Shown: positions 24,543 through 24,908, numbered from the stretch's first letter. The stretch is DNA of 46,256 nt from a virus (IMGVR_UViG_2579779052_000002), one strand, 5' to 3'. Made by a program: numbers and translations. The notes: generated from the letters alone by a model not told the origin.

Positions 24543-24875
24543 TCAGTGTGCAGAAGGACTAAAGATAAACGTTTTCTTCACGCCTTTACACGGCCTGTCC
24601 TTCTCAAATCGCCATTTTGCCATCGCCTTTACAACCTGCTCATCAAACAGATGGTGCGGCTCTGAACGAATAAACTCAATTCGGGTGACAGTACCATCAG
24701 CACCAATATCAAACCTCACATCAACCCGTCCCTTTATATAATTTGCCGCTGCATAGGCCGGATATTGTGGTAATGCCTTAACCAACTGTCGGGGCATATC
24801 TGTTTTATGTTGCGTACAGCCCATAACCAGAGAAGACAACAAAATAATTAACGGAAGATTTCTTTTCATTTTCAT
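24543..24875 (-). CDS. lipoprotein with TonB C-terminal-like domain
   Basis: Signal peptide plus lipobox (LVMGC); mature part ALPQYPAYAAANYIKGRVDVRFDIGADGTVTRIEF...VVKAMAKWRFE aligns with the E. coli TonB C-terminal motif ([28 protein letters not shown]...NAMRRWRYE) as recalled. Start codon uncertain (24884 GTG, 24875 or 24869 ATG). Confidence 0.75.
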   Translation of the reverse strand: MKMKRNLPLIILLSSLVMGCTQHKTDMPRQLVKALPQYPAYAAANYIKGRVDVRFDIGADGTVTRIEFIRSEPHHLFDEQVVKAMAKWRFEKDRPCKGVKKTFIFSPSAH

Positions 24876-24887
24876 TCCCCGCACAGA

Positions 24888-24908
24888 TTAGAATAAGTCT
24901 TATTCTAA
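24888..24908. promoter_or_regulatory. perfect 10-bp-arm inverted repeat TTAGAATAAG-n-CTTATTCTAA just upstream of the lipoprotein gene
   Basis: Seen directly; candidate operator. Confidence 0.4.

Follow-up and report, generated by a model that had tools for sequence, protein, structure and literature searches.

A prophage-borne lipoprotein built on the TonB C-terminal domain and its possible role as an unpowered decoy for TonB boxes

Why should a prophage carry, next to its lysis genes, the very domain with which TonB contacts its outer-membrane partners? The question is raised by a stretch of viral DNA of 46,256 nucleotides (IMGVR_UViG_2579779052_000002; "the window" below always means this whole stretch), which contains on its minus strand, between Rz and the packaging genes, a small gene for a predicted lipoprotein whose mature part resembles TonB's C-terminal domain. 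An earlier reading of this locus, made from the sequence alone, had described the product as a lipoprotein mimicking that domain, and had suggested that it might act as a decoy in the periplasm. Here we ask what the protein is, where in the cell it is expected to be placed, and how well a decoy role fits the evidence. The elements of the gene itself are the following:

24543..24869, minus strand: coding sequence, with its stop codon, for the TonB_C lipoprotein of 108 amino acids; the product equals WP_000828071.1 "TonB family protein" (open reading frame list, RefSeq, Pfam/NCBIfam/PDB matches)
24816..24869, minus strand: predicted signal peptide, residues 1-17, with lipobox LVMG-C18 (pattern check on the protein and 11 relatives)
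24558..24794, minus strand: TonB C-terminal domain, residues 26-104, equivalent to E. coli TonB 153-231 and including the TonB-box-pairing beta-3 strand (gapless phmmer alignment, AlphaFold2 model, superposition, key residues)
24876..24880, minus strand: Shine-Dalgarno-like GGGGA, 6 nt upstream of the ATG at 24869 and directly abutting the ATG at 24875 (read from the sequence)

The domain assignment is firm. Pfam TonB_C (PF03544) matches with an E-value of 9.1e-15 (55.3 bits against a cut-off of 24.6) and TIGR01352 tonB_Cterm with 7e-15 (55.1 bits against 27.1), while a phmmer search of all PDB sequences returned TonB-family chains only, the best with an E-value of 1e-15, and aligned query residues 26-104 with E. 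coli TonB without a gap. In this alignment, which has a constant offset of 127, 30 of the 79 residues (38%) are identical to TonB 153-231. A first AlphaFold2 model, based on eight close sequences, was weak (predicted local distance difference test, pLDDT, of 62) and was replaced by a second one based on 15 sequences reaching down to 31% identity, with a mean pLDDT of 85 and averages of 95-98 for the blocks from residue 31 to 100; its strand at residues 94-103 is beta-3. The second model shows the TonB fold (helix, two strands, helix, third strand), with a Foldseek probability of 1.00 and target template-modelling (TM) scores of 0.88-0.92 across three structures: TonB from the BtuB:TonB complex (2gsk_B; root-mean-square deviation 1.0 Å over 79 columns, TM 0.92), TonB from the FhuA:TonB complex (2grx_C; 1.1 Å, TM 0.92) and free TonB-92 (1u07; 1.2 Å). 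The likeness that the sequence-only reading had described is therefore real, and the check that it proposed, a TonB_C profile search together with a structural superposition, produced a match on both counts rather than the lack of a hit or of a fold that it had named as the opposite outcome. Its word "mimicking" does not hold: with 38% identity to TonB 153-231 and a place in the wider TonB_C protein family, the prophage lipoprotein is a diverged homologue and not a mimic.

The N-terminus has a different character. The minus-strand open reading frame spans 24543..24884 and offers two in-frame ATG codons, at 24875 (110 amino acids) and at 24869 (108 amino acids). The longer form had been assumed earlier and the corresponding frame does exist, but we favour the start at 24869, because of the spacing of GGGGA from the two codons; this is also the RefSeq start of WP_000828071.1, in a locus 100% identical over window positions 24400-25000. 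From there the protein reads MKR, a charged start, then NLPLIILLSS, a hydrophobic core, then LVMG-C18, with the lipobox cysteine inside the first 35 residues. The signal peptide and lipobox (LVMGC) noticed earlier thus agree with a lipoprotein pattern of the PROSITE PS51257 type, matched to sequence only, which fits ten of 12 family members (the window protein and nine of 11 relatives). None of the ten has Asp at position +2. Under the +2 sorting rule a lipoprotein with a residue other than Asp in that position goes to the outer membrane, and since the residue after Cys18 is Thr the protein is predicted to be an outer-membrane lipoprotein. A side observation concerns the second cysteine of the mature protein: alleles that otherwise hardly differ carry either Cys (RPCKG) or Arg (RPRKG) at residue 94 (window 24588-24590), so that this cysteine is not essential.

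Such a protein shares a domain with TonB and little else. The full-length TonB equivalogs of NCBIfam (NF008080-NF008084) score only 49-74 bits against cut-offs of 265-448, and match from about profile position 152 onward only. In place of the uncleaved N-terminal anchor that couples TonB to ExbB/ExbD, the pattern check finds a cleavable lipoprotein signal peptide, and nothing in the protein aligns to TonB 33-152, where the proline-rich spacer would be; the linker from Cys18 to the domain is about eight residues long. Lacking both the ExbB/ExbD membrane anchor and the spacer, the protein cannot transduce energy; it belongs to the TonB_C-domain proteins, but not to the TonB energy transducers. 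In comparison with E. coli TonB (P02929, about residues 150-239), it has in common the homologous domain, the alpha-beta-beta-alpha-beta fold, the YP motif and a basic isoelectric point. It differs in having neither the anchor with its H20, nor the spacer, nor the ExbB/ExbD link, in being (as predicted) lipid-anchored in the opposite, outer membrane, and in ending four residues before the C-terminus of TonB.

What has been kept, in contrast, are residues that matter for function. In a cysteine scan over TonB 150-239 only seven residues turned out to be functionally important, Y163, F180, G186, F202, W213, Y215 and F230, which were proposed to act in transporter and ligand recognition; three of them, W213, Y215 and F230, are just 22-26% conserved over TonBs generally, yet highly conserved in enterics (PMC3005593). 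All seven are retained in the prophage protein, six as identities and one as a Y215-to-F replacement, and they stay conserved throughout the family of small proteins. With the recognition residues present and the energy coupling absent, the idea of a decoy is well motivated, and we tentatively propose, giving it a little less than an even chance, that the protein sits under the outer membrane as an unpowered competitor for TonB boxes. The gene would then be an independently transcribed accessory gene of the prophage (a "moron"), and its product would be exported, lipidated at Cys18 and, through the linker of about eight residues, held in the outer membrane's inner leaflet, placing a complete TonB C-terminal domain directly beneath the TonB-dependent transporters. 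There beta-3 would pair with TonB boxes by beta-strand pairing, as it does in TonB, in competition with the scarce TonB of the cell; the targets would be the TonB boxes of transporters such as FhuA, FepA, CirA and BtuB, perhaps along with those that group B colicins bring in. The predicted phenotype is protective, in that the lysogen would be less sensitive to invaders that need TonB, such as phages T1 and phi80, the colicins B, D, Ia and M, and certain microcins, and it would pay with reduced uptake of siderophore-bound iron and B12. The protein is probably also abundant late in lytic growth, since the gene lies on the late-gene strand and no terminator is predicted after Rz. Two precedents bear on the proposal: an overexpressed periplasmic TonB domain is cited as inhibiting TonB-dependent iron import (Howard et al. 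2001, J Bacteriol 183:5885, as cited in PMC9841981), and Llp of phage T5 is described as a phage lipoprotein that blocks the TonB-dependent receptor FhuA from the periplasmic side, which makes such blockade an established strategy.

Several points weigh against the decoy. Binding to TonB boxes is deduced indirectly, and three further residues of TonB, R158, Q160 and R166, which we take to be contacts to TonB boxes or FhuA, are replaced by K31, L33 and Y39 in the prophage protein. Since transporters are in great excess over TonB, a decoy would need to be either plentiful or selective. Impaired iron uptake has its price, and still the gene is present in about one in four E. coli genomes (see below). 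Some relatives, in Raoultella and Erwinia, are chromosomal and ordinary-looking, with no phage, transporter or bacteriocin genes nearby, and a search with the defence models of PADLOC-DB 2.0 gave no match, the sole hit being at chance level (E 0.039). Finally, nothing ties the gene to exclusion of its own type of phage, since carriers differ in the receptor-binding end of their tail protein J: the C-terminal 305 amino acids of the window J are 99.7% identical to those of VT1-Sakai, whereas the J gene of Perceval, a prophage of E. coli LF82 that carries a homologue of the TonB-like gene, matches the window J only in its N-terminal part, at about 79% nucleotide identity. We therefore make no link between the gene and the receptor of its own phage.

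One may also ask whether the gene does anything at all, or is a decaying "TonB fragment" left behind by illegitimate recombination. The database names "TonB fragment" and "partial tonB-like membrane protein" suggest as much, and the protein collection contains several frameshifted or truncated variants. The distribution and the evolution of the gene tell otherwise. Among 5426 complete E. coli genomes, the subfamily of the window is present in 417 and a second subfamily, that of LF82 and phage 21, in 1225, so that roughly a quarter of E. coli genomes carry the TonB-like gene. It is also found in 15 deposited phage genomes, including Shiga toxin (Stx) 1a phages, JLK-2012, phage 21, Perceval, ev017 and a Klebsiella phage. 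In the latter (41% identity) and in a Rahnella prophage (36%) the relative again lies between the lysis genes and the small terminase, and the position is thus conserved over three genera (Escherichia, Klebsiella and Rahnella) with different packaging modules. Between the two E. coli subfamilies the nonsynonymous divergence (dN) is 0.19 and the synonymous divergence (dS) 1.55, giving a dN/dS of 0.12 (range 0.12-0.13), and all 82 gene copies from the retrieved loci, that of LF82 included, are intact; by these measures the gene is under purifying selection. Moreover, the TonB N-terminus has given way to a purpose-built signal peptide with a lipobox, and these are still conserved in relatives at 33-45% identity. 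A functionless leftover is therefore very improbable, and effectively refuted by the selection and conservation data.

The search was also widened. A profile search of genome contigs with a narrow alignment gave six loci, and an exhaustive HMMER search recovered a wider set of proteins of about 110-130 amino acids with the same architecture, at 33-51% identity. Their contexts vary. On a plasmid-like metagenome contig (L099, 5001-5390) a lipoprotein relative of about 32-36% identity stands beside partition genes of the ParM/StbB type, and on its other side is a cluster of DUF6694, a KAP NTPase and QatB that resembles the Qat anti-phage system; another relative is found inside a cellulose-synthesis locus, next to a Tle1-like gene. 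A Serratia branch (P0179-P0181) has no lipobox and is apparently soluble in the periplasm. In Serratia ureilytica (L092/L093, 6001-8510) a lipobox-free relative with 33% identity adjoins a colicin E1-type immunity gene and a pore-forming colicin of 575 amino acids, whose N-terminal DSMTV (residues 18-22) resembles the TonB box of group B colicins; in another Serratia strain the relative borders a SIR2 gene instead, so that it marks the edge of a variable island. The plasmid relative by the Qat genes and the island edge with its colicin or SIR2 gene are accessory contexts, and were counted in favour of the decoy. Judging from these comparisons, the phage gene is one branch of a mobile accessory family rather than a fresh capture of tonB. 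In its general form the idea would be that a whole family of unpowered TonB-domain decoys, lipid-anchored under the outer membrane or free in the periplasm, is carried for this purpose by temperate Enterobacterales phages as well as by some plasmids and islands, and that by jamming the contact between TonB and its boxes it gives broad, receptor-independent protection against TonB-dependent phages, colicins and microcins; we regard this as conceivable, though less likely than not. As a separate observation, the searches also brought up long proteins of about 370-830 amino acids (P0033, P0036 and others) with 3-8 tandem TonB_C-like stretches, some of which outscore TonB of the E. coli type against this query.

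Where the gene sits, and how it might be expressed, bears on its possible functions as well. Window positions 509-29584 are 99% identical to the late region of a lambdoid prophage in E. coli NCCP15648, whose annotation was applied to that part of the window. On the minus strand the order is holin, endolysin, Rz with Rz1, the TonB-like gene and then the packaging side, which comprises a convergent DUF3950 gene, an HNH endonuclease, the small and large terminase, head genes of the HK97 type, and the tail genes as far as J, lom and the fibre of the tail. The neighbouring elements are:

25208..25675, minus strand: Rz i-spanin, upstream of the TonB-like gene (Pfam Phage_lysis, E 3.6e-49)
25270..25455, minus strand: Rz1 o-spanin, embedded in Rz (Pfam Rz1, E 1.7e-21)
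25019..25205, minus strand: conserved non-coding block of about 185 nt directly after Rz (in 398 lambdoid/Stx phage records, 75-98% identity)
24211..24411, plus strand: YlcI/YnfO (DUF3950) gene, the convergent downstream neighbour (RefSeq; Pfam DUF3950, E 4e-20)

The placement between Rz and the packaging genes, in a slot of the type that holds bor, had been claimed by the sequence-only reading and is confirmed by the Pfam matches of Rz and Rz1, by the annotated neighbours, and by bor/iss adjoining the gene elsewhere: in phage 21 and in Perceval, whose homologue is 70% identical to the window protein, the TonB-like gene follows Rz/Rz1 and bor/iss and precedes cos and Nu1. It accompanies both HK97-type and lambda-type packaging modules, and in Stx1_1380 the slot is empty, a small-terminase open reading frame similar to Nu1 of lambda (identified by eye from the translation) following directly. 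The conserved block after Rz is not specific to the gene, most of the 398 phage records that have the block being without it, and we read it as a module boundary, the upstream edge of the accessory slot, at which such genes are swapped. A structured RNA in this block was considered and dropped, with no Rfam match and a folding z-score of -0.75. In lambda-like genomes the block sits near the right end, before cos.

Since the slot is shared with bor/iss, the protein could be an envelope lipoprotein that benefits the lysogen in a manner unrelated to TonB boxes, for example by tethering or stabilising the outer membrane or peptidoglycan, or by helping the host to survive serum or macrophages, as Bor/Iss do. 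The TonB C-terminus has been proposed to bind peptidoglycan, and the chromosomal relatives without a phage or transporter context would suit such a role; moreover, the homologue in the pathogenic strain LF82 is listed among the accessory genes expressed in the lysogen (PMC9928086). On the other hand, the Lambda_Bor profile was absent from a Pfam scan at E-values up to 1, which gave TonB_C and TonB_2 only and no other domain, and a generic tether would have no need of the seven conserved residues of transporter and ligand recognition. We consider this explanation unlikely.

The position directly behind the lysis genes raises another possibility, namely that the role is mainly lytic: as a late read-through gene it might switch off or alter TonB-dependent receptors in the dying cell so that progeny are not lost on debris or superinfection is avoided, or it might aid in disrupting the envelope. 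In all phages that were examined, from three genera, the gene directly follows S-R-Rz/Rz1 and shares their strand, which is notable, and sparing progeny or preventing superinfection is among the roles that have been proposed for T5 Llp. The scanned interval 24300-25400, which covers both sides of the gene including the gap after Rz, showed no terminator-like site, and late read-through from Rz is therefore likely as well. The protein also matches PHROG 1267, labelled "Rz-like spanin" in the lysis category, over its full length (E 5e-42). An i-spanin has a membrane anchor and a coiled coil, an o-spanin is a short proline-rich lipoprotein whose gene is typically embedded in or overlapping that of the i-spanin, and a u-spanin combines a lipobox with a C-terminal membrane segment. 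Spanin identity was rejected, as the protein matches neither Phage_lysis nor Rz1, as it lacks a coiled coil and ends in a beta strand instead of a membrane segment, and as a separate, genuine Rz/Rz1 pair is already there. The PHROG label looks like an annotation error that arose from the position beside Rz, its members being TonB_C lipoproteins. Further arguments against a mainly lytic role are a promoter-like site of the gene's own and the reported expression in the lysogen, and also that binding at the periplasmic face alone would not stop virions from attaching to surface loops. In sum, we find such a role improbable.

The features upstream of the gene that concern its expression are two:

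24902..24929, minus strand: predicted sigma-70 promoter, -35 ATGACC (24929-24924), 16-nt spacer, extended -10 TGtTAGAAT (24910-24902) (consensus scan)
24888..24908, no strand: perfect palindrome TTAGAATAAG-T-CTTATTCTAA, with exact 10-bp arms, the gene-upstream arm containing the -10 hexamer

A promoter at 24902-24929 is supported by retention of the block ATTGT(T/C)AGAATAAGAC in the LF82 subfamily despite diverged flanks. In the LF82 lysogen the homologue, under the name "TonB fragment", is expressed 8-fold above the prophage background, the criterion by which that study recognised morons (PMC9928086); we mapped this name to the homologue as the only TonB-like gene in Perceval. The gene thus has the properties of a moron, with a promoter-like site, a location between modules, a presence independent of those modules, and lysogen expression reported for the LF82 homologue. 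A second promoter-like site was seen at 24715-24742 on the plus strand (CTCACA, 16 nt, TATAAT; 10/12 matches), inside the TonB-like coding sequence, on the opposite strand and facing the 5' end of the gene, and could be a chance match or an antisense promoter.

The palindrome is as exact as the sequence-only reading had stated, with 10-bp arms at 24888-24908 upstream of the gene, but it is not a conserved feature of the gene. Perfect repeats with 10-bp arms (loops of 0-5) are expected 0.33 times per window and occur at least once in 25% of first-order Markov random sequences, so that on its own the palindrome is only mildly unusual. In the retrieved loci its perfect form is a rare allele, present in three of about 80 tallied gene copies; most copies have 8-bp arms, some carry single mismatches without a compensating change, and the LF82/phage 21 subfamily lacks the right arm altogether. 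Given the rarity of the perfect form, the lack of compensatory changes and the missing right arm in the sister subfamily, a conserved operator or RNA hairpin was rated low. A Fur box was also rejected, the best match to GATAATGATAATCATTATC being 12 of 19, a value that 7% of random 101-nt windows reach, and as a terminator the palindrome lacks a T-run and was not detected in the terminator scan. It may be a local operator within one subfamily. Elsewhere in the window there are three further perfect inverted repeats with arms of at least 10 bp (7663-7686, 19256-19277 and 37581-37605), all more G+C-rich than the one at 24888, which brings the distinct perfect repeats to four against the 0.33 expected by chance; these three are probably terminators or regulatory sites, located between tail and head genes as well as in the P2-like part of the window.

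That P2-like part is a reminder that the window is composite. Beside the lambdoid portion at 509-29584, positions 29000-45895 match a P2-like prophage as in E. coli SCU-105, with genes for lysis, head, terminase, portal, ParM, replication and immunity. The overlap of the two portions, in the region 27900-29800, falls inside an esterase gene, annotated as SASA family in one genome and as DUF6645 in the other, which suggests that two prophages recombined at a shared esterase gene. No Q antiterminator or immunity region of the lambdoid part was found in the window.

As a sequence feature the gene is already annotated and not a new observation: RefSeq calls it "TonB family protein", its name in phage 21 (CPT_21_73) is "TonB C-terminal domain protein", and in Perceval it goes by "TonB fragment". 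A full-text literature search returned no paper testing or discussing the function of the prophage TonB_C lipoprotein, and by full-text search counts the word TonB is absent from the phage 21 genome announcement. As a mechanism, a TonB decoy would be a new variant of phage-encoded receptor blockade. If the decoy proposal is true, a very common prophage gene changes how E. coli responds to TonB-dependent phages, colicins and microcins, possibly also to siderophore-antibiotic conjugates such as albomycin or drugs of the cefiderocol type, and trades iron uptake for protection. This would bear on host range in phage therapy, on colicin competition in the gut and on strain differences in iron acquisition; it would offer a natural dominant-negative TonB for studying the interaction of TonB with transporters, and it would amount to a new mode of superinfection exclusion and bacteriocin tolerance, one that hits the energising step rather than a single receptor, in phages that include the classical phage 21. 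Phage 21 and the inducible LF82 prophage Perceval both carry the gene, which makes the idea directly testable with existing strains. Should it prove wrong, there is still a widespread, conserved, lysogen-expressed lipoprotein.

How, then, would such a decoy compare with what is already known to block the TonB system? One parallel is offered by TonB fragments engineered for the periplasm (Howard et al. 2001, as cited in PMC9841981), which are likewise periplasmic TonB C-terminal domains uncoupled from ExbB/ExbD, and of which the lipobox-free Serratia branch resembles the soluble version. Those fragments, however, are laboratory constructs of TonB itself, whereas the prophage protein, as known from sequence and model, is natural, diverged, lipid-anchored and phage-borne. 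Llp of T5 is, as described, also a small outer-membrane lipoprotein of a phage, and acts on a TonB-dependent transporter from the periplasm, an action that in the prophage protein is predicted. No sequence or family relation to Llp, or to Cor of phi80, N15 and HK022, was detected, the Pfam and PHROG hits of the prophage protein being to TonB_C families only, and while Llp and Cor are specific to FhuA, a TonB-domain decoy is expected to act on many transporters. Bor/Iss of lambda share with it the predicted nature of a small outer-membrane lipoprotein and the accessory location between Rz and cos, and Bor is induced in the LF82 lysogen grown in Dulbecco's modified Eagle's medium (PMC9928086). 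The sequences of the two are unrelated, and bor runs antisense to the late genes whereas the TonB-like gene is co-oriented with them; as both are present together in phage 21 and in Perceval, they are not alternatives to each other.

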